From Eledone cirrhosa (lineage: Eukaryota): a DNA stretch of 64,000 nt. The stretch is taken from contig OZ024748.1 of the NCBI GenBank assembly GCA_964016885.1, forward strand, positions 39,680,001 through 39,744,000. Direction: 5' to 3'. The translations under genes and the position numbers were made by a program. Numbering within the stretch: the stretch's first letter is position 1; each line of letters starts with the position of its first letter. The notes under the pieces are model-generated. The model saw nothing but the letters and a program-made list of their open reading frames with translations, searched no databases and was not told the origin of the DNA. Positions 13,825 through 43,900 of the stretch are shown in pieces.

Positions 13825-13862
13825 GCCAACAATGTTTCGTCCTATTAAGGACTCATCAGGGC
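13825..13862 (-). ncRNA. Minimal type I hammerhead ribozyme (Penelope-type)
   Basis: Minus strand: GCC CTGATGA GTCC ttaata GGAC GAAAC att GTT GGC. Confidence 0.75.
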
Positions 13863-15534
13863 AAATAAAACAACAAGAAGTATTATCGGCCAATACAAGC
13901 CAGAAACTCCGAAGAATATGGAGTGTACATACACTAAAGTATTGCAAGATTATGGGTAAAAATATATAATAAAAATTACCAAGGAGGAGTATAACATTTA
14001 GAACCATATTACAAATATAGTCCAAAGCAAAAACAATCCTAGAGCTAAACAAAGGTGGTTATATAGAGCAGGTATTATATATAATACAATATAATATAAT
14101 ATAATATAATATACCAATATTAAAATTACAATAAAAATCAAAAGGTACAATATACATATGTATATATATACGCACACGTACGCACATATACACATACATC
14201 AATACACATATCCATCTTCAACAGCACAAATTAAACCTTATTAAGAGTTTAAATATAAATAAGCATGATAGGAATAAAAATAATAATAATAATAATACAT
14301 ATACCCAATATACATGAGGTAATAATATGATATTATTATAAGTAGCACATATAATATATAATAAGCTATACAATTATATACTATATAATATAATATAATA
14401 GAATAGATAGTCTCCGGTTAATTTACACAAACAATATAGATGTCACAATAATACTATAATAATAATATAATATAATAACATATATAATATACAATATATA
14501 ATGGCATTGAAGTTAACAAATCAATTCATATAGAGTTACAGAGTAGGTGAGGAAAATAAATTGTACAATATCCAAAATTATGATGGTACAAAAATATAAA
14601 CATCGTACATGGTATATAAAGTTTAACATATCACATTGTTACATATAATCAACGGTAAGTAATAAGGATCGATGGTCCTATAACCAATACAATATAAAAT
14701 AATTAACATAATATAATATATAATTACTTATAATTACAAGGTTGGTAAACAGACAAAAATATATGTGGATGAGTGAGTAAGGGCCAGACAGTAAATATAA
14801 AGCACAGTAGTATTACAAATAAAATAAAATAAAATAAAATAAATAGATAGAATCAGCCGGAAATTAAAAAACAAAAACAAAAGTATACATTCAGGTCTCA
14901 CATGCCGTTAAGTAAAAACTTAGGAAATAACCCCGGTAAATGACTCGAAAACCCTATTTGATAAATTAATATTAAAAAATGCTTCAAATATCCAATAAGG
15001 CAATACTATATTAGCTATGGTTTAAGTAATCAAAGTTTATAAACGTTAATATTTCATTACAAATATTTACAAAAAGGAATGACATTTTTTACTATCATAT
15101 ACATAACGATATCTAAAAAACTGACTTAAGCAGAATTATGGTAGGCTAATAGGGACAGAAATAGAGAAATATATGGAGGATACAAAGGGGCATAAAATCA
15201 TAGTCCATATACTATATTAAATATTAGAAAGGAGCGTAAAAGATGGGGGAGGATTAAATATAATTATAATCAATTTGGAGGGGTTGACAATAAGTTTATG
15301 TGCGCATGGGGGGAGGGGGGGGGGGTTATCCAAAGAAGAATCCAAATAAAAATAAAAATAAAATAAAATAAAATAAAGAAAAGTGAAATAAAATAAAATA
15401 ATGTAAAATATATAATCAGATATATACTCATAAGGTGTTAATAGTGAAAATTTAATGCGTAAGAAGATAGATATGGTATAGTAGCCAAAAGATTATGAGA
15501 GCTAGAATAAAGAGTTGTCAAAAACCAATGATAA

Positions 15535-21416: not shown

Positions 21417-21472
21417 ACTGCTATGTATATTTCGATGATAGCCATTGAGTGGCTATGACCTCATCAGGCAGT
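21417..21472 (-). ncRNA. Type I hammerhead ribozyme (Penelope-type)
   Basis: Minus strand: ACTGC CTGATGA GGTCATAGCCA ctcaa TGGCTATCATC GAAAT atac ATA GCAGT. Confidence 0.78.
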
Positions 21473-25599: not shown

Positions 25600-25990
25600 A
25601 TTGTTTCTTCTTCGTCCAGTTATTTCTGAGAGGGTCGTGGGGGTCAGAGTCCTCCAACACTCCTTCCAGCAAGTCATGTCAGAAGCAACCGTTTCCAACT
25701 GATCCGGCTGGATCTCCCAAGCATGACCAGCCAAGCTCATGGATCTTAGCAAACCATCTTACTCAGGGTGGGTCGATCCCTGGGTTTCTTGTCGGTTTGT
25801 TTTGCCCGTAAAATCTGTCCGGTGATTCTTTCCTGAGACATTCTAACCACATGTCCATAGTATCAGAGCTGTGATCTCTCAATTCGGAGAAGTAGCGGCT
25901 CTACCTGGAGTAACTCTCTGATCTCAGAACTACGCACCCTATCGAGTAACATTACTCCAAAGACCCTTCAGAGGAATCCCATTTCGGCCG
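25600..25990 (-). mobile_element. RTE-clade LINE 3' fragment
   Basis: Homologous to 29280-29680 and 35400-35640; minus strand encodes AAEMGFL..RSSEIRE..IERSQL.YYGHVVRM. Confidence 0.75.
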
Positions 25991-26062
25991 CTTGTATTGT
26001 TTCTATTTACGAAATAACACAACTGAGGATTTTAATAGTGTCAAATTTTCGTTTCCTTTCAG

Positions 26063-27560
26063 TTCCGACTTTATCGAACCATTTAAAATACATATTGTAG
26101 AGAACATAAAGATCAATAACCGTAACGACAGATTAATTGCTCTCGAGAAAGCTGACTACAACATTTTTAAATTACAACCTGAAGATGTCATGATCGATTT
26201 CCTTACAGATGCTGGCACTAATGCTTTCAGTCTTGAACAAAACGCAAGAATATGGATGGGTGATGAAAGTTATGCCGGATCTACTAGTTATGAAACTTTG
26301 AAAGACACGGCAACATATATTTCTGGTTTTGAAAACATTCTGCCAGTTTTTTCTGAATGCATCAGCGAAGAGATTGTCGCTTCTTATTTCACAAAAGCTG
26401 GAGATAAGGTTATTGGGAATACTTTTACTTATTCACTTGAGAAGCATATAAAGGATCTTCATGCTGAAGCGATTTCTTTGTTAGATTGGTCAGATAATAA
26501 TTTTGCAGGAAATCTAGATGTTCAAGCACTCAAAAACTTATTGGCAGAAAATGATAAAAAATCAATTTCCTTTCTTATAATGAATGTACCAGCAAAAAGT
26601 AGTGGTGGCCAACCAGTTAGTATGTCAAACATGAAAGCAGTTTCTGATCTCTGTCGCGAACATTCGATTCCGATATACATCGAAAGTAGTATGTATGGTG
26701 AGAACTGTTGGCTCAATAAAATGTACGAAGAGGCTTACTTCAATAAATCGTTAGTTGAGATATCGCAAGAAATGTTTTCTTTTTTCGATGGCTGCATTAT
26801 TTCTGCTAAAAGAGATGGTAGAAGTGAGATTGGAAGTGTCATTTGTCTTCAAGACAAAGAAATGACTCGAAAATTGGGCACTGTTATTACTCTTAAAGCA
26901 GGTTTCATAACTTATGGTGGGATGGCTGGCCGAGATATGGAAATGGTAGCGGTTGGCATGCGAGGTGCTTTGGATGAACAACTGCAAGACTATCGACAAA
27001 AACAATTGGCATTTTTCAAAAGATCCCTGAAGGAATTTGGTGTTCCGATTGTGGAGCCAGTCGGTTGTAATACCATCTTCATTGATGCCGAAAATGCTTT
27101 TCCTAACTGTAAACACGCGTTTTATCCAGCCTGGTCTTTATCTTGTGCTGTTTATATCGTCGGGGGTATCCGATGCGCAGAGTTTGGTCAAGTTACTCGT
27201 CCAACAAGCAGCTTACCCACTAATCATTTTCTGAAAGACCGAGAATTACTAAAGCTTGAGATACCTCGTTTCATCTATACGACTTGTCACATTTTCTATG
27301 TTGCCTATGTTTTCGCTCAGCTTATTTCACATGAAATGCTTTCTGGAATGAAACTTATTGCCTGCTCCGAAGACCAAATAAAACTCGTGAAAATAAAAAT
27401 GAAACCAAATCATTCTCTGGAATATGACGATATCCAACTCCTTCCGGTACAAGACTGTGAACACATTCACTTCTTTAAAAACATATATAATCAAAGAGTT
27501 ATGAAAAGAAATTCAATCGCCGAGGCATCTTCTATATGGTCAGTCGACATTCCTTCTTAA
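26063..27560 (+). CDS. Tryptophanase/tyrosine phenol-lyase family protein, paralog A (lacks PLP lysine; keeps trans-acting Tyr); spliced exon, 5' exon not certain
   Basis: Uninterrupted ~500-codon frame: EPFKI, IDFLTDAGT, GDESYAGS, GGQPVSM, SAKRDG, GFITYGGMAGRD, GIRCAE, LEIPR. Acceptor ttttcgtttcctttcAG at 26061-26062. The TTG start at 25992 is not credible. Confidence 0.85.
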
Positions 27561-27754
27561 AAAGTGGACAAACACGTTAGATAATGTAATCGTAGACACA
27601 AAAAAGACGTGGTAGTCATGATTGGAACGTCCCTGATCATAGAATTGCTCTGTCAATGTTCACCTGAACTTAAACAACAGCAACAACAACACAGAGATTT
27701 TTTTTGTTGCACCCAAACAGGATTCTGTAAATTCTAGATTGTACATTCTTTTAT

Positions 27755-27897
27755 TCTTTTACTGGTTTCAGTCATTAGACTGTGGCCATGCTGGGGTACT
27801 GTTCTTTTACTGGTTTCAGTCATTAGACTGTGGCCATGCTGGAGCAGTGGTCTTTTACTGGATTCAGTGATTCTACTGTGGCCATGCTAGGGCACCA
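27755..27897. repeat. ~48-bp tandem repeat x3 (fragment of a dispersed repeat)
   Basis: ttcttttactggtttcagtcattagactgtggccatgctgg repeated. Confidence 0.75.
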
Positions 27898-28092
27898 ATT
27901 GATTGTTAGTTTGTTTTTTTTAATTGGTTTTATTCCCAACAATTAAACTATTGAACATGATTTTGAATAGAAAGTAGGGGAAAACATTGACAGTCTTGTC
28001 AAATATAGTTTTAATATTATGTTAACAAAAAAAGGAAATAAAATATCTTTGGAAACTTAAATATATTTCTTGTGATGTTCTTTTACAATTAT

Positions 28093-28375
28093 TTCACCAA
28101 TATATAATTAATATCAAACATTGTGATGTATGTTTCACCAATATATAATTAATAACAAACATTGTGATGTATGTTACACCAATATATAATTAATATCAAA
28201 CATTGTGATGTATGTTACACCAATATATAATTAATATCAAACATTGTGATGTATGTTTCACCAATATATAATTAATATCAAACATTGTGATGTATGTTTC
28301 ACCAATATATAATTAATATGAAACATTGTGATGTATGTTTCACCAATATATAATTAATATGAAACATTGTGATGT
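28093..28375. repeat. 41-bp minisatellite x~7
   Basis: caccaatatataattaatatcaaacattgtgatgtatgttt. Confidence 0.9.
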
Positions 28376-29279
28376 GGTTGTGATAATTCGGGGAAAGATG
28401 GTACAACGAATATTAGATAAACTAAGGTGAAAAGATACAACAAATCAGCATTTTAAACTTTCGTCTTATATTTCTTGATGTTTTGAGGTGAGAAACTTTT
28501 TTCAAAAGAAAGAAATGGAGTCTGGTCTTGTCAACGCCCAAAGAAATGTTGATAAACGATTTATTTACATCAACTTATTATTGATGGTGACATGCTTTTG
28601 TTTCACTTTAAAAAAATATTATAATAAGGTGACATACTAATATAAATATTATTTTAAAAATAAAAAACAAATCTTGAAACATCTTATGACTGTGGCAGTG
28701 GCAAGGTTTATAGAGTTAAGAAGCCTCACAACCATCTGATTTCCGGTTCCTTTAGACTACATGGCATCTTAAAGAAGTGTCTTTCTGCCATAGGTTCGAG
28801 TCAACAAAACGGACAGTTTGCCCTTTTCGGCTTGGCGGGCAGCAGGGCCTGGACTGGTGGTGGAATGCACCAGGTTGGCACTTGCAATTAATTGTAATAT
28901 AACTGATAGATGTTGTTTCAATTCTGTGCCATTAATTGTAGATCAACGACAACATTGTTGCAGTAGTTATTTCAATTATGTGCCATTAATAATCTGTGTT
29001 ACGAACACTACATAAATAGTCTACAGGTGTTACCTTGATTTCACCAGATGGAAATATCAAAATCAAAATTGATTATGTAATTGTTCCAAACAATATTCTC
29101 GAAATGGTGAAAAACTGCCATGTGTATATTTCTACAGATATTGGTCTAGAATATTTCAACTTAGAGACTGGAAAACACAAACGTTATTATCATAAATGTA
29201 CTGTGATTGTGTGAGGCTTAATTATTAAAGATTGTAAAATCCATTCCCTGTGAATTATATCCAAGAATTTTCTTTTTCT

Positions 29280-30080
29280 TCCTTCACTTATTCCTGAGAA
29301 GGTCGTGGGGGAAGAGTCTTGAAACACTCCTTCTAGCAGGTCCTGTCAGAAGCAACCATCTCGAACTGATTTGGCTGGATCCCCAAGCGATACCTGCCAA
29401 GCTTATGGATGTTATCCAACTATCTTGCTCAGGGTCTACTCCTGGGTCTCCTGCTGGTTGGTTTTGCCAATAAAATCTGTCCAGTATTTCCTTGGACATT
29501 CTAGCCATATAATATGTAATATCAGAGCTATGATTTCTCAATTCGGAGAAGTATCAGTTCTACCAGGAGTGATTCACAAGTCTCCAAGCTACACACACTA
29601 TCGAGTAATGATACTCCAAATACCCTTTTGGAGGAACCCCATTTTGGCCACTTGTATTTGCGATTGTATTCTTTCAGTCATTACACAAGATTCATGACCA
29701 TAGGTAAGGGTTGGCACGAAAATCGAATTGAAGATAGTGAGTTTGGTGTTTACACCTACCTCCCTTCTTCTGATTACCAAATGCCAAAGCTGTCACATTA
29801 CTGCAGCAGCTCCTGCAATTATTGCACTTAATTCGGCCTCCTGCCTTCCATCACTCGTGACCATGGCCCTGAGATACTTGAACTTCTCTACCAACTTCAG
29901 TAGAACTCCTTTCGCATGTAGAATGCACTGCGCAGGCTTCCTTTAGAAGACGAGTGTCTCAGTTTTCACAGCACTGAATTTCATTCCAGCCATGCATCAC
30001 TCTGCATCAAACCTATCAAGTGCAAGTCAGAGATCACCTTTTGTTGAGTTTGTAACACCATGTTGTCTGCAAATTCCAGC
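29280..30080 (-). mobile_element. RTE-clade LINE 3' fragment
   Basis: KLTIFNSIFVPTLTYGHES..IQVAKMGFL; FKYL motif; degenerate. Confidence 0.8.
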
Positions 30081-30163
30081 CACAAATTGCTGGCCATGTG
30101 CCTAAATTAGAAAACCTTATTCCTGCAAAAGGTCCTGTTAATCCTTAATTATTATTAAATATA

Positions 30164-30568
30164 ACATATATACAAACTGGAGCTGTGTCAGGGACCAGTC
30201 CGCAAACATATATACAAACTGGAGCTGTGTCAGGGACCAGCCTGCAAACATATATACAAACTGGAGCTGTGTCAGGGACCAGTCCACAAACATATATACA
30301 AACTGGAGCTGTGTCAGAGACCAGTCCGCAAACATATATACAAACTGGAGCTGTGTCAGGGACCAGTCCGCAAACATATATACAAACTGGAGCTGTGTCA
30401 GGGACCAGCCTGCAAACATATATACAAACTGGAGCTGTGTCAGGGACCAGTCCGCAAACATATATACAAACTGGAGCTGTGTCAGGGACCAGTCCGCAAA
30501 CATATATACAAACTGGAGCTGTGTAAGGGACCAGTCCGCAAAAATATATACAAACTGGAGCTGTGTCA
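30164..30568. repeat. 42-bp minisatellite x~10
   Basis: acatatatacaaactggagctgtgtcagggaccagtccgcaa. Confidence 0.95.
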
Positions 30569-30916
30569 GTGACAATGTCTGCAAACAATGAGTTGAACAT
30601 TTTAACACCAAGAAATATATGATAAATAAAAACTACAGTTAACAGATTTTTGTGTTTTGAATTACTAAAGTGACTCGTGTACAATGTAATTGGTATATAT
30701 ATATATATATATATACTCACTCTATATGTATGTGTTTTTATATAAATATGTAAATATTTGTGTATATATATATATAGTTGTTATATAGTAAGGTGTATTA
30801 TTGGTTGTGTCATACGGTCCAATAAACTTTTGTTAGCAATATTAAGTTCTCCACGCTTTTGTATATCTCCAATTCCATTTAAGGGAACAGCTAGATGATG
30901 TAAAACGGAGTATTTG

Positions 30917-32515: not shown

Positions 32516-32562
32516 TATATATATAAAACTGAATTTACATTTTTTTTTCCAGTCTCCAAGCA

Positions 32563-33942
32563 ATGGAACCTTACAGGATTAAGGTATTTTATCCAGTCAA
32601 TTTAATCCCCAAGTCTGACCGTATTGCATGTCTAAAAGCTGCCAACTACAACCCCTTTCTACTTAAATCGAAAGACATATTTATAGATTTGCTAACAGAT
32701 TCTGGTACAGGAAGTCAAAGCAGTGCCCAGTGGTCGGCTATGACTAAAGCCGGCTATTCAACTATTAATTCCGAATACGTTAAGGAATTTGTACGTACAA
32801 TTCAACACATTACCAATTTCAAACATGTATTTCCAGTTCATCAAGGTCGAGGAGCCGAAGGTTTGTTGGCAAAACTCCTACTGAATAAAGAGAGTGTTGT
32901 ACTGAGTAATTCTCTCTTTGACACAACACGAGCACACGTTGAGTCATCTGGTGCAATTGGAATAGATTTGGCAACAAAGTCTTCAAAATTCTTAGGTGAT
33001 GCCGATGTGGAAAAATTTGAAGAAACACTGGATGAATATGGTTCTAGAGTTCATCTTGTAATAATAACCTGCACCAATAATGTGGTAGCCGGAGCTCCTG
33101 TGAGCATGCAAAATATAGAAATCATAACAAAATTATGTCGAAACAAGAATATCCCAGTTATAATGGACGCATGCCGTTTTGTTGAAAATGCTTATTTTAT
33201 CAAGACCTTAGACGAAAAATATTCTAAACACACAATCTTAGATATTGCCAGCGAAATGTTTTCTTATTTTGATGGTGCAACTATGTCTTTAAAGAAAGAT
33301 GGTATGAGCAATGAAGGTGGGTTTATAGCTTTCAACAACGACAAATGGGCCACCAAAATATTTGACATAATCGAATATAAAAGTGGTTATTCAACTTACG
33401 GGGGAATAACTGGATCAAATCTTGTAGCATGTACTGTCGGAATTTCTGAGGCTATGAACGAAAATTACCTCCGATCAAGAATCTATCAGGCTAAATTACT
33501 GGCTGATTTCTTGGAAGATAATAATATTCCCGTATTTAAACCAGTAGGGGCCCATGCCGTCTACGTGAAAGCAAACAAAGTCTTGCCACACCTTGATTTC
33601 TTGAAGTATCCAGCATGGTCCCTTAATTGTGCCGTATATATCGAAGGTGGTATTCGATGTGCAGAAATTGGCAATATAATGTTTGGTGAAAATTCAGATG
33701 GAACAAAACAAATTCATCCCTTTGAATATGTGCGTTTGGCTTTACCCAGAAGAACCTATACGGTCAACCATCTGCATTTTGTGGCCAAAACTTTTGGTTT
33801 TGTTGCCAAAAAAGCCCATTTAATCCACGGAATGGAAATTGTCAAATCTTCGCATCTCCTAAGACATTTCACAATTTGGATGAGACCATTAAATGAATAC
33901 CACCTTGAAAAGAATAATAATCAGAAAAAAATAAACTGTTGA
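32563..33942 (+). CDS. tnaA: Tryptophanase-like PLP-dependent beta-eliminating lyase, paralog B (PLP Lys intact; catalytic Tyr replaced)
   Basis: 459-aa intact ORF: EPYRI, IDLLTDSGTG, HQGRGAE, FDTT, TNN, DACRFVENAYFI, MSLKKDG, AEIG, VRLALPRRTYT, LRHFT. FDTT/EIG/RHF are tryptophanase-type rather than TPL-type. Acceptor ttttttttccAG at 32551-32552. Confidence 0.92.
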   Translation: MEPYRIKVFYPVNLIPKSDRIACLKAANYNPFLLKSKDIFIDLLTDSGTGSQSSAQWSAMTKAGYSTINSEYVKEFVRTIQHITNFKHVFPVHQGRGAEGLLAKLLLNKESVVLSNSLFDTTRAHVESSGAIGIDLATKSSKFLGDADVEKFEETLDEYGSRVHLVIITCTNNVVAGAPVSMQNIEIITKLCRNKNIPVIMDACRFVENAYFIKTLDEKYSKHTILDIASEMFSYFDGATMSLKKDGMSNEGGFIAFNNDKWATKIFDIIEYKSGYSTYGGITGSNLVACTVGISEAMNENYLRSRIYQAKLLADFLEDNNIPVFKPVGAHAVYVKANKVLPHLDFLKYPAWSLNCAVYIEGGIRCAEIGNIMFGENSDGTKQIHPFEYVRLALPRRTYTVNHLHFVAKTFGFVAKKAHLIHGMEIVKSSHLLRHFTIWMRPLNEYHLEKNNNQKKINC

Positions 33943-36008: not shown

Positions 36009-36340
36009 ACATGGCTTAGTGGTTAGAGCATTTGCCTTGCAATCGAAAGGTTTGAGTTCAATTCTCAGACCGGGTGATGTGTTGTTTCCTTGAGCAAGAC
36101 ACTTTATTTCACATTGCTCCAGTTTACTCAGCTGTAGAAATGAGATGATAGGGACTGGGGTCCCTATCATTCCACTGCAAAGTGGTCATGGAGGTGCCAC
36201 GGCAAAAAAGCACCCAGCACTCACTGTAAATGAGGTTGGTGTTAGGAAGGGCATCCAGCTGTAGAAATCAAGCCAGAATCAGTTCCCGTCCTACCCTTGC
36301 AAGCAGGGAAAAGTGGACGTAAAATGATGATGATGATGAT
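36009..36340 (+). mobile_element. tRNA-derived SINE (family B)
   Basis: A box tggcttagtgg, B box gagttcaattc, ccttgagcaagacac body, aggaagggcatccagc, (ATG)n tail; near-identical copy at 45320-45660. Confidence 0.85.
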
Positions 36341-37099
36341 ATATATGGATAATAGGATAAATTTGGTACAACCAATAAATTATAAAGGCAACAAATATTT
36401 TCTTGTTTTAATATTGCAGTTTATACATATCTTAAGAAGCAGTATAAGAAAAGCTTACATTTCATTTTCAAACTTAAGTAAAAAATAAAATATATATTTA
36501 TTTTCAATTTTTAAAATGCGAGCAAAAACATAAAATCGATTTGAATATTCATCACACATACATATATATACATGTATATTATTTCGAAAAAAAAGGGGGT
36601 GGGGTAAAGTTTTATACAAAAAAATGATGACCAGTTCGAATATTTGAGAGAAAACTCAAGTATATTCGAACTGCTCAGATATTAAAAAAATTTCTTTTAT
36701 TAATATTCAATATTTAACATCTAATATTTGATAAAATTGTTTTACCAATCGAAACCAGTTATATTTAATGCAACAATTATAAAATTATTCATTCTGTCAG
36801 ATTAAAGAAAAAATAATCTTTTAATATTCCCTGGACATTGGCAATTTCAACCCCCTACCAACAGTACTGCTGGTTCACTCTGGGTCACAGCGTCTGAGAC
36901 AAGTCAGAGCGTAGTGTCCAAATAATTATTTTAAATTATTCTATGAAAAATAAAAATTAATTACAGGTATCTAAATATCACAATTTGTTTTGTTGGATGA
37001 TCTACCAACTTTGCCATCAACCAGTCATTTCTATCAAATAATTTCCAATAATATTTGTGAATATGAAAAGGTAAAGAAAGATCGATATATGTGCGTGTA

Positions 37100-38671
37100 T
37101 ATATAACGTCTGAATAGCTCAGGCTGTCATACCTGACAGTCCTCAGTGAAATATGTATAACGTCTGAAGAGCTCAGGCTGTCATAACTGATAGTCCTCAG
37201 TGAAATATGTATAACGTCTGAAGAGCTCAGGCTGTCATAACTGATAGTCCTCAGAGAAATGTGTATAACGTCTGAATAGCTCAGGCTGTCATACCTGACA
37301 GTCCTCAGAGAAATGTGTATAACGTCTGAAGAGCTCAGGCTGTCATAACTGATAGTCCTCAGTGAAATGTGTATAACGTCTGAAGAGCTCAGGCTGTCAT
37401 ACCTGATAGTCCTCAGTGAAATATGTATAACGTCTGAAGAGCTCAGGCTGTCATACCTGATAGTCCTCAGAGAAATGTGTATAACGTCTGAAGAGCTCAG
37501 GCTGTCATACCTGACAGTCCTCAGTGAAATGTGTATAACGTCTGAAGAGCTCAGGCTGTCATACCTGACAGTCCTCAGTGAAATGTGTATAACGTCTGAA
37601 GAGCTCAGGCTGTCATACCTGATAGTCCTCAGAGAAATGTGTATAACGTCTGAAGAGCTCAGGCTGTCATAACTGATAGTCCTCAGTGAAATATGTATAA
37701 CGTCTGAAGAGCTCAGGCTGTCATACCTGATAGTCCTCAGAGAAATGTGTATAACGTCTGAAGAGCTCAGGCTGTCATAACTGATAGTCCTCAGTGAAAT
37801 ATGTATAACGTCTGAAGAGCTCAGGCTGTCATAACTGATAGTCCTCAGTGAAATATGTATAGCGTCTGAAGAGCTCAGGCTGTCATACCTGATAGTCCTC
37901 AGAGAAATGTGTATAACGTCTGAAGAGCTCAGGCTGTCATAACTGATAGTCCTCAGTGAAATATGTATAACGTCTGAAGAGCTCAGGCTGTCACAACTGA
38001 TAGTCCTCAGTGAAATATGTATAACGTCTGAAGAGCTCAGGCTGTCATAACTGATAGTCCTCAGTGAAATATGTATAACGTCTGAAGAGCTCAGGCTGTC
38101 ATAACTGATAGTCCTCAGTGAAATATGTATAGCGTCTGAAGAGCTCAGGCTGTCATACCTGACAGTCCTCAGTGAAATATGTATAACGTCTGAAGAGCTC
38201 AGGCTGTCATAACTGATAGTCCTCAGAGAAATGTGTATAACGTCTGAAGAGCTCAGGCTGTCATAACTGATAGTCCTCAGTGAAATATGTATAACGTCTG
38301 AAGAGCTCAGGCTGTCATAACTGATAGTCCTCAGTGAAATATGTATAACGTCTGAAGAGCTCAGGCTGTCATAACTGATAGTCCTCGGTGAAATGTGTAT
38401 AACGTCTGAAGAGCTCAGGCTGTCATAACTGATAGTCCTCAGAGAAATATGGATAACTTCTGAAGAGCTCAGGCTGTCATAACTGATAGTCCTCAGTGAA
38501 ATATATATAACGTCTGAAGAGCTCAGGCTGTCATAACTGATAGTCCTCAGTGAAATGTGTATAACGTCTGAAGAGCTCAGGCTGTCATAACTGATAGTCC
38601 TCAGTGAAATATGTATAACGTCTGAAGAGCTCAGGCTGTCATAACTGATAGTCCTCGGTGAAATGTGTATA
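37100..38671 (+). repeat. 54-bp satellite (~29 copies), each unit a minimal hammerhead ribozyme motif
   Basis: Unit ACGT CTGAAGA GCTCAGGCTGTCA taac TGATAGTCCTCAGT GAAAT atgt ATA; period 54 (CTG at 37110, 37164, ...). Confidence 0.85.
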
Positions 38672-38911
38672 GCAGAGTTTTAAATAAATCTGAATTGACT
38701 GGTAATGGCCTCCAACCTTTTAATAGTGTGTGTGTGTGTGTATACATATGAGATTGTTTAGCCTTATATACCTTTCCACAATAATATATATATATATATA
38801 AGTAAAAGTGGTATTTAATTTGTTGGAAGTCCGACAAACATAGATGTTTATAACTGATTTAGAGCACTCAACAAATTACTGGAGTAAATATTCAATGATA
38901 TTAAATAAATG

Positions 38912-39638: not shown

Positions 39639-39703
39639 TATTTTATCTGATGAAAGCATACCAATGTAGTCTTGGTTACCCTTGAAATATATATAATAAA
39701 ATA
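39639..39703 (+). ncRNA. Type I hammerhead ribozyme (Penelope-type)
   Basis: TATTTTAT CTGATGA AAG..CCAA..TTGG..CTT GAAAT atat ATA ATAAAATA; 8-bp stem I. Confidence 0.78.
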
Positions 39704-43379: not shown

Positions 43380-43900
43380 TAATTCATTACCATATTTCTC
43401 ACAAAAGATACTGTATGTCATTAACCCTTTCATTACCTTATTTTGAATGAAAGACAAAGTCTATGTCATTAACCCTTTCATTACCATATTTATAATGAAA
43501 GACACTGTCTATGTCATTAACCCTTTCATTACCATATTTCTAATGAAAGACACAGTCTATGTCATTAACCCTTTCATTACCATATTTCTAATAAAAGACA
43601 CTGTTTATGTCATTACCATATTTCTAATGAAAGACACTGTCTACGTCATTAACCCTGTCATTACCATATTTCTAATGAAAGACACTGCCGATGTCATTAA
43701 CCCTTTCATTACCATATTTCTGACACTGTGTATTTCATTAACCCTTTCATTACCATATTTCTAATGAAAGACACTGTCTATGTCATTAACCCTTTCAATA
43801 CCATATTTCTAATGAAAGACACTGACTATGTCATTAACCCTTTCATTACCATATTTCTAATGAAAGACACTGTCTATGTCATTAACCCTTTCATTACCAA
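43380..43900. repeat. 48-bp minisatellite
   Basis: gtcattaaccctttcattaccatatttctaatgaaagacactgtctat. Confidence 0.9.

Follow-up and report, generated by a model that had tools for sequence, protein, structure and literature searches.

In-place repetition of a Penelope-type minimal hammerhead in Eledone cirrhosa: a 54-nt array of likely slippage origin

A tandem array of 29 minimal hammerhead motifs in the genome of Eledone cirrhosa is, in the reading that we favor, one hammerhead of a dispersed parent element multiplied on the spot to 29 copies. The likely mechanism is DNA slippage across the hammerhead's own stem I, and the array is likely functionless; to this reading as a whole we assign a probability of roughly two-thirds (0.68). 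The array lies in a stretch of 64,000 nucleotides, here called the window, corresponding to positions 39,680,001–39,744,000 of the forward strand of contig OZ024748.1 (assembly GCA_964016885.1), and window positions are used unless a chromosome is named. To judge from its sequence, the array expanded within a non-coding, dispersed element of Penelope type and is not a free-standing satellite; of the free satellite proposed in an earlier, sequence-only reading, the tandem repetition is real, but the tail of the parent element is still attached at 38672–38724. The repeat likely behaves as a minisatellite whose unit is a minimal hammerhead of Penelope type, as a drifting repeat and not as a factory of RNA circles.

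The array and its hammerhead units

TRF described the array as a repeat of period 54 with 29.1 copies, 95% matches, and no indels, and splitting it at the predicted cut site yielded exactly 29 units on the plus strand (37106–38671), each one a minimal type I hammerhead motif according to the motif scan; in this register the predicted cuts fall after each ..GUAUA, at 37159, 37213, and so on to 38671. Every unit runs through ACGT, the core box CTGAAGA, an interrupted stem II of 31 nt, GAAA, a self-complementary stem III region of 8 nt, and the AUA triplet, so that the head-to-tail minimal hammerheads of Penelope type announced in the sequence-only reading are borne out as 29 × 54 nt, with a dispersed family of parent elements behind them. 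The core box reads CTGAAGA in 27 units and CTGAATA in the other 2, and those 27 of the 29 also conform to the minimal type I core (CUGANGA, GAAA, NUH); GAAA itself is present in all 29, preceded by T in 21 and by A in 8. The damaged units that had been claimed are therefore present, as is the stem II pairing with its variants (TGACAG in 5 units, GGT in 2). ACGT is found in 26 units, with GCGT in 2 and ACTT in 1, and the stem III loop is ATG in 16 and GTG in 13. In shape, with a stem I of 4 bp and a stem II of 12 interrupted pairs, the unit is that of the minimal hammerheads of Penelope-like elements; the 10.1–11.1 position holds G-U in 21 of the 29 units and G-A in 8, G-U being also the family majority, instead of the G-C pair expected of that type. 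Both the core and the 10.1–11.1 pair are intact in 20 of the 29 units.

A search with the Rfam models, of the kind that the sequence-only reading had recommended, gave no match within the array in a scan of the whole window and none at E ≤ 10 in 37950–38200; since these covariance models match nothing in the array, it is the scan for motif and pairing that carries the hammerhead call. Reversed-pattern controls returned 0 genome matches versus 531 for the exact junction between units, so that the junction repeat is not a product of chance.

Upstream the array abuts a TA/TG microsatellite (37080–37105) whose terminal TATA is identical to the end of a unit, which identity leaves the 5′ breakpoint uncertain by 4 nt; the 5′ part of the parent element, some 140 nt, is absent from this copy. 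Downstream comes the parent's 3′ tail (38672–38724, plus strand), common to all the tandem loci and to the dispersed monomers, with the 3′ arm GCAG, an AATAAA, and an ATGGCC; the arm GCAG, which follows the last unit, pairs poorly, and the tail is of the short 3′ end register and resembles that of subfamily B. A (GT)n/TA microsatellite (38725–38746), variable in length among the duplicated copies of the region, closes the sequence and likely represents the second half of the target site. The copy as a whole thus consists of a microsatellite, 29 hammerheads, a short tail, and a microsatellite. A stop-free frame on the minus strand (36961–38679) was rejected as coding, being a by-product of the 18-codon repeat.

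Folding was assessed through secondary-structure energy estimates, a model that excludes core contacts stabilized by Mg2+ and co-transcriptional folding. The minimum free energy of a single unit was −12.3. In the minimum-energy structure of the whole array none of the 29 units kept its own proximal stem II or its stem I, and G8 was paired in 26 of them: G8 and A9 belong to a palindrome, GAGCUC, that was predicted to pair between units, and multimers are accordingly predicted to misfold through it. The classic double hammerhead is impossible for neighbors because one ACGU cannot serve two units at once. The active-like array folds cost 5.0–15.0 kcal/mol above the ensemble, the cheapest being a half-dimer (5.0 kcal/mol), in which the core of one unit, n, cleaves at the end of the following unit, n+1, followed by a cis fold in a 2-mer (11.9 kcal/mol) and a full dimer of units 1 and 3 (15.0 kcal/mol); the active-like fold of the parent monomer costs 5.7 kcal/mol. 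These estimates do not support a favorable active fold in multimers, and a transcribed array would be expected to cut weakly at best, by way of the half-dimer.

The parent family and its tandem sites

Genome searches with the flank and the tail alone recovered the dispersed family. The 110 monomers that we aligned carry one hammerhead each, with CCGT/ACGG as the majority stem I and a mean of 3.4 changes per 50 letters. A 20-nt tail word had 203 exact matches and occurred in 20 of the 83 loci that other queries had recovered, from which two figures the family is estimated at some 800 copies, nearly all with a single hammerhead. The element, 260–370 nt in length, spans from about −200 of the cut site to about +60 or +170, according to whether the 3′ end is short or long; 55 of 123 informative arms extend to between −190 and −200 and the remainder are truncated, a second, inverted arm is present at 32 of 128 loci, and the ends adjoin microsatellites. 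Two 3′ end registers in the tail, inverted paired arms, microsatellite targets, and 5′ truncation are together the marks described for Penelope-like insertions (PMC11167929). Of 30 monomers taken in order along the genome none starts at the cut site, and of the 123 informative arms 1 does; two monomers (L162 and L288) break off at the foot of stem I, next to a microsatellite. The idea that the whole parent element served as the unit of a tandem retrozyme was abandoned, a second copy on the same strand occurring in only 2 of 128 loci (297 and 878 nt apart). At two loci (L152, at G000:C1:209.3 Mb, and L088, at C1:424.87 Mb), 8 nt are duplicated across the parent's predicted cut site, possibly a second hotspot at stem I.

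As autonomous partner, with a linked reverse-transcriptase (RT) and GIY-YIG reading frame, we considered two neighboring Penelope-like frames, and among these no coding partner of the parent element was found. A GIY-YIG-like fragment by the trimer at C8:35.9 Mb was set aside because it carries a different hammerhead of its own, and a decayed RT frame by a pair of monomers on C2 because its family carries the parent element in 0 of 29 further loci. Pfam had no match for either the RT-like or the GIY-YIG-like fragment, and what we take to be RT and GIY-YIG are so labeled from their motifs. The decayed Penelope-like RT/endonuclease frame of L226 (G000:C2:217.599–217.602 Mb) has at least 150 relatives in the genome, at 73–93% identity. 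Inserted back to back with the 5′ end of the parent element is a further family of Penelope-like elements (L022:4232–5300 and L039), whose C-terminus is GIY-YIG-like and which has a hammerhead-like motif of its own.

The exact junction had 531 matches in the genome and 1,094 at up to 3 mismatches, almost wholly accounted for by at least six separate sites, so that the genome-wide search that had been suggested for further arrays uncovered more than a single locus. These sites are a dimer at C1:11.4 Mb, whose units share T25C and C36T; a dimer at C1:424.9 Mb, whose units share A40T and T42C; a trimer at C8:35.9 Mb (35.92 Mb), with a native first unit and later units like those of the cluster around the window; a 12-mer at C7:8.26 Mb; the cluster itself, nine co-duplicated arrays on C8 beside a lyase gene, that of the window included, with 12–93 units each and 322 in total; and an array of 757 units (G000:C1765:34–40911; L117, L023, L118, L119, and L024) that covers at least 40.9 kb and runs off the start of its contig. 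The C7:8.26 Mb and C8:35.92 Mb arrays have a common 5′ flank ending in CC(G/A)T and, in common with the window, the 3′ tail. The parent tail is kept at all six tandem sites found, and the parent's 5′ flank at the four sites, apart from the C8 cluster, whose 5′ end is visible; tandem sites occur on both tail subfamilies. On the reverse strand 15 matches were obtained at up to 3 mismatches, versus 13 from known sites. A gap-tolerant search, covering C1 to C8:39.6 Mb plus the whole reverse strand, disclosed no other junction length (free gap of 0–30 nt) among the 100 of 335 matches listed. A search for the ancestral allele gave 52 matches, of which three were the known junction, and the four candidates inspected were monomers.

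The C8 cluster belongs to a segmental duplication (G000:C8:39.1–40.1 Mb; 1–2726 and 54088–58173 of the window) with a period of some 50–65 kb, which region also contains telomere-like tracts of the (AACCCT)n type and a 27-nt minisatellite. Two pairs of its copies are near-identical and may be either very recent or assembly duplicates.

Origin of the junction and movement of units

The ACGT between units is the parent's 3′ arm ACGG and 5′ arm CCGT joined at their common CG, with 54 nt as the resulting period. Any such join of the two arms is a palindrome, for which reason a "shared stem" requires no selection: the ACGT that had been read as a stem I shared by neighbors can indeed serve as either arm, but it is a duplication junction and not a design. 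Because both stem I arms contain CG, a slip between them would duplicate exactly 54 nt and create a palindrome usable as either arm, and each new unit would be a complete motif by geometry. The window array was likely founded by a copy whose truncation point, at stem I, adjoined the TA microsatellite, which would have extended the repeat at both unit ends to TATAACG and so primed the slip; the array may then have grown and shrunk as a minisatellite, to the 12–93 units of the nine co-duplicated copies. That the duplication took place in DNA after insertion is suggested by the two C1 dimers, in each of which both units share private or rare changes—the pair A40T and T42C, for example, in 0 of 110 monomers. 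For a slip that recurs, a microhomology of two letters is scant, which counts against the slippage reading. The window also contains minisatellites with periods of 41–48 nt (27754–30587 and 43383–43899); by its sequence, the genome would appear to expand short stretches readily, which tendency forms the background for the hammerhead array.

The units, furthermore, appear to have traveled. A21G, present at 5 of the 6 tandem sites, is fixed in the C8 cluster and at C7, and occurs in 2 of the 3 units at C8:35.9 Mb, in 1 of the 2 at C1:11.4 Mb, and in 48 of 757 in C1765; among the monomers it was found in 8 of 119, and in 0 of 23 belonging to the subfamily with the cluster's type of tail. The last unit of the C8:35.9 Mb trimer has A21G, A40G, and a terminal G as in the window cluster and is followed by a tail of the other subfamily; since cluster variants stand there beside a foreign tail, units must have moved between sites. 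The simplest reading of the shared variants would be ectopic conversion from the end of an array, through which units probably reached one or more further copies of the element. The cluster units are nearer to the family majority (1 change in 50) than is their tail (14 in 60), 4 of whose 14 changes lie in the microsatellite and 2 at subfamily sites; this difference counts against the reading as a drifting repeat. A-to-I editing as a source of the A>G variants was dropped, T>C changes occurring as well.

The variants did not support selection for catalysis, core changes not being depleted in the arrays: with 20% expected, the core contained 7 of the 36 distinct variants among the 322 units of the C8 cluster and 12 of the 58 among the 757 units of C1765. 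Structure-tolerant variants numbered 14 of 36 in the C8 cluster (p 0.12–0.62). In favor of selection, on the other hand, the cluster's three commonest variants all preserve the structure, a G-C pair lost through A21G is regained with T32C, and in C1765 the structure tolerates 8 of the 11 common variants, all transitions (p 0.003–0.024). In C1765, A13G is present in 491 of the 757 units, the core is kept in 254 (65% having a core change), and in most units the distal stem II is broken. The monomers had 60 core changes versus 80.5 expected, a deficit that may reflect either selection during the spread of the family or the way in which the copies were found.

The strongest competitor of the slippage reading, though an improbable one, is a mini-retrozyme: a transcript of array and tail would trim itself, be copied by a Penelope RT, and be inserted with its 5′ end at the cut site, while RNAs or circles of 54n nt would carry units into other copies of the element. 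That the window array begins on the cut-site register, within 4 nt, is the best hint of such a route, but the TA microsatellite explains the register too. The single junction type among the matches listed, the derived variants common to unlinked tandem sites, the 272 of 322 cluster units that keep both core and 10.1–11.1 pair, and a half-dimer fold no costlier than that of the parent monomer (5.0 vs 5.7 kcal/mol) would all accord with it. Against it, cleavage and ligation cannot yield the first junction from a parent that has one cut site, no array devoid of the parent tail was found, the C1 dimers are of local origin, none of the 30 monomers begins at the cut site, and the terminal G common to the cluster and the C8:35.9 Mb trimer lies beyond the end of a cut unit; moreover, insertion of a lizard Penelope element proceeds, in the account given by PMC11167929, with no need of cleavage and with no RNA ends seen at the site. 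The full chain that would make of this array the smallest retrozyme—a chain joined at the CG of the arms, half-dimer self-trimming, insertion by RT, and 54n-nt circles converting single parent copies—is slightly less probable still.

No better placed is a single origin followed by spread in DNA only, pieces of an array (conversion tracts or extrachromosomal DNA circles) having recombined into monomers that kept their native flanks. The junction is identical everywhere, even where the terminal arms have no CG (C7 and C1:11.4 Mb)—as is today the case for 6 of the 10 terminal stem I arms visible at the tandem sites—and the trimer, with its native first unit and cluster-like later ones, has the composition to be expected of such spread; each C1 dimer, with private changes common to its two units, would nevertheless require further local conversion, and the 41-kb C1765 array has fixed changes of its own, G17A and T22C.

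A use by the host is less credible than either. According to this proposal the array, tuned by its copy number, would cut or destabilize read-through RNA of the lyase gene, a beta-eliminating, tryptophanase-like reading frame (32533–33942, plus strand; PF01212, E 5.7e-53) in the co-duplicated region, whose position on the same strand some 3 kb upstream, as the sequence-only reading had it, was measured at 3.16 kb. The array and the same flank accompany this gene in nine duplicated copies, and the 5′ junction recurs in a second sample whose lyase ORF differs at 13 of ∼1,500 letters (the contigs of runs X1 and X4 cover SINEs and intergenic DNA and are hence read as DNA). The co-occurrence, however, follows from the segmental duplication, in which the flanks of the nine copies show 1–8 differences in 350 nt, whereas those of the other five tandem sites are unrelated; 8–10 of the 29 window units carry damaging variants; and 12 poly(A)-signal-like hexamers, of which AT-rich DNA gives many by chance, stand between the stop of the lyase ORF and the array. 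An assembly artefact, with repeats collapsed or wrongly multiplied, could draw on the near-identity of two pairs of cluster arrays (between the window and C8:39.855 Mb, 27 of 29 units are equal in order), by which the count of nine may be inflated; but the patterned variants of the units, and the contigs from two sequencing runs that span the flank as far as the array or enter it, render this explanation very improbable.

Relation to known elements and surroundings of the array

The nearest relatives are the minimal hammerheads described in the pseudo-LTRs of Penelope-like elements (Cervera and de la Peña, 2014; PMC4209133), reported there to cleave weakly even as dimers or trimers. The present units resemble them in the short 4-bp stem I, the long stem II, the palindromic stem III region (AUAUGUAU), the occurrence mostly as single dispersed copies, and the low activity to be expected; they differ, as far as that account describes its motifs, in having G-U instead of G-C at 10.1–11.1 and in that here the motif alone is repeated, with neither spacer nor any coding partner found. 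Tandem hammerhead repeats from 51 bp upward are likewise already on record: the preprint of Li, Clavereau, and Pollet (bioRxiv 10.64898/2026.07.22.740005) reports non-LTR retrozyme families of 51–972 bp in animals, 8 of 9 tested dimers of which did not cleave, and its discussion proposes local amplification after insertion. Type I hammerheads in consecutive units and a derivation from a Penelope terminus are common to those families and ours, and by the operational definition of that preprint as worded, though applied here with a descriptor other than the authors' exact one, the array would count as a retrozyme, with hammerheads in at least two consecutive units and a fold below −5 kcal/mol; the sections of it on which we draw give neither a mechanism for the junction nor a mollusc.

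The non-LTR retrozymes of coral, mussel, and axolotl (Cervera and de la Peña, 2020; PMC7229834), for their part, are described as having units of 170–400 nt, canonical ribozymes, thousands of loci, and abundant circular RNA. Ours have in common with them a type I hammerhead per unit, multimers, and a low GC content; unlike them, the present units are of 54 nt—outside the ∼150–450 nt of retrozymes—are known from DNA alone, and occupy at least six sites, the six found all being embedded in the parent element with the tail attached, as opposed to the dispersal of a retrozyme. The Penelope-like element PAc of the anole, as characterized in PMC11167929, has two 3′ end registers in its tail, extension of both strands, and AT-rich targets, and the short and long ends and inverted pairs of the parent family match it; PAc, however, codes for RT and endonuclease, whereas for the parent element no linked reading frame was found among the two neighboring candidates. 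Our literature searches found no paper on a hammerhead-only repeat of cephalopods, and in the octopus repeat paper PMC13282606 the words "hammerhead" and "ribozyme" occur 0 times.

What is new here, then, is the rule of the junction, the complete range of copy numbers within a single genome, and the signs of exchange between sites. By that rule a slip between the stem I arms at their common CG would give complete ribozyme motifs for free, and all the steps by which a Penelope terminus is proposed to become a tandem hammerhead repeat—monomer, dimer, trimer, 12-mer, 29–93-mer, and 757-mer—are present in that genome. Pipelines that call any tandem repeat of intact hammerheads an "active retrozyme" will count such minisatellites among them. 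If, on the other hand, the RNA route were true, the array would represent a ribozyme-only mobile unit of 54 nt.

The window contains, besides, two intronless tryptophanase-like lyase frames (25950–27560 and 32533–33942), and dispersed hammerhead-like motifs of other families were located by the motif scan at 39647–39695 (plus strand, with a weak stem II) and at 21422–21467 (minus strand); although they belong to different families, both end in GAAATATAYATA, in agreement with the likeness that had been noted between the unit end and nearby dispersed hammerheads. A tRNA-derived SINE-like repeat (36012–36340, plus strand) lies ∼0.8–1.1 kb upstream of the array, with a T5 run at 36508 between the two. 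A further hammerhead-like motif of another family (13822–13865, minus strand) gave a weak match to the Rfam model Hammerhead_1 (25.4 bits, E 0.078).
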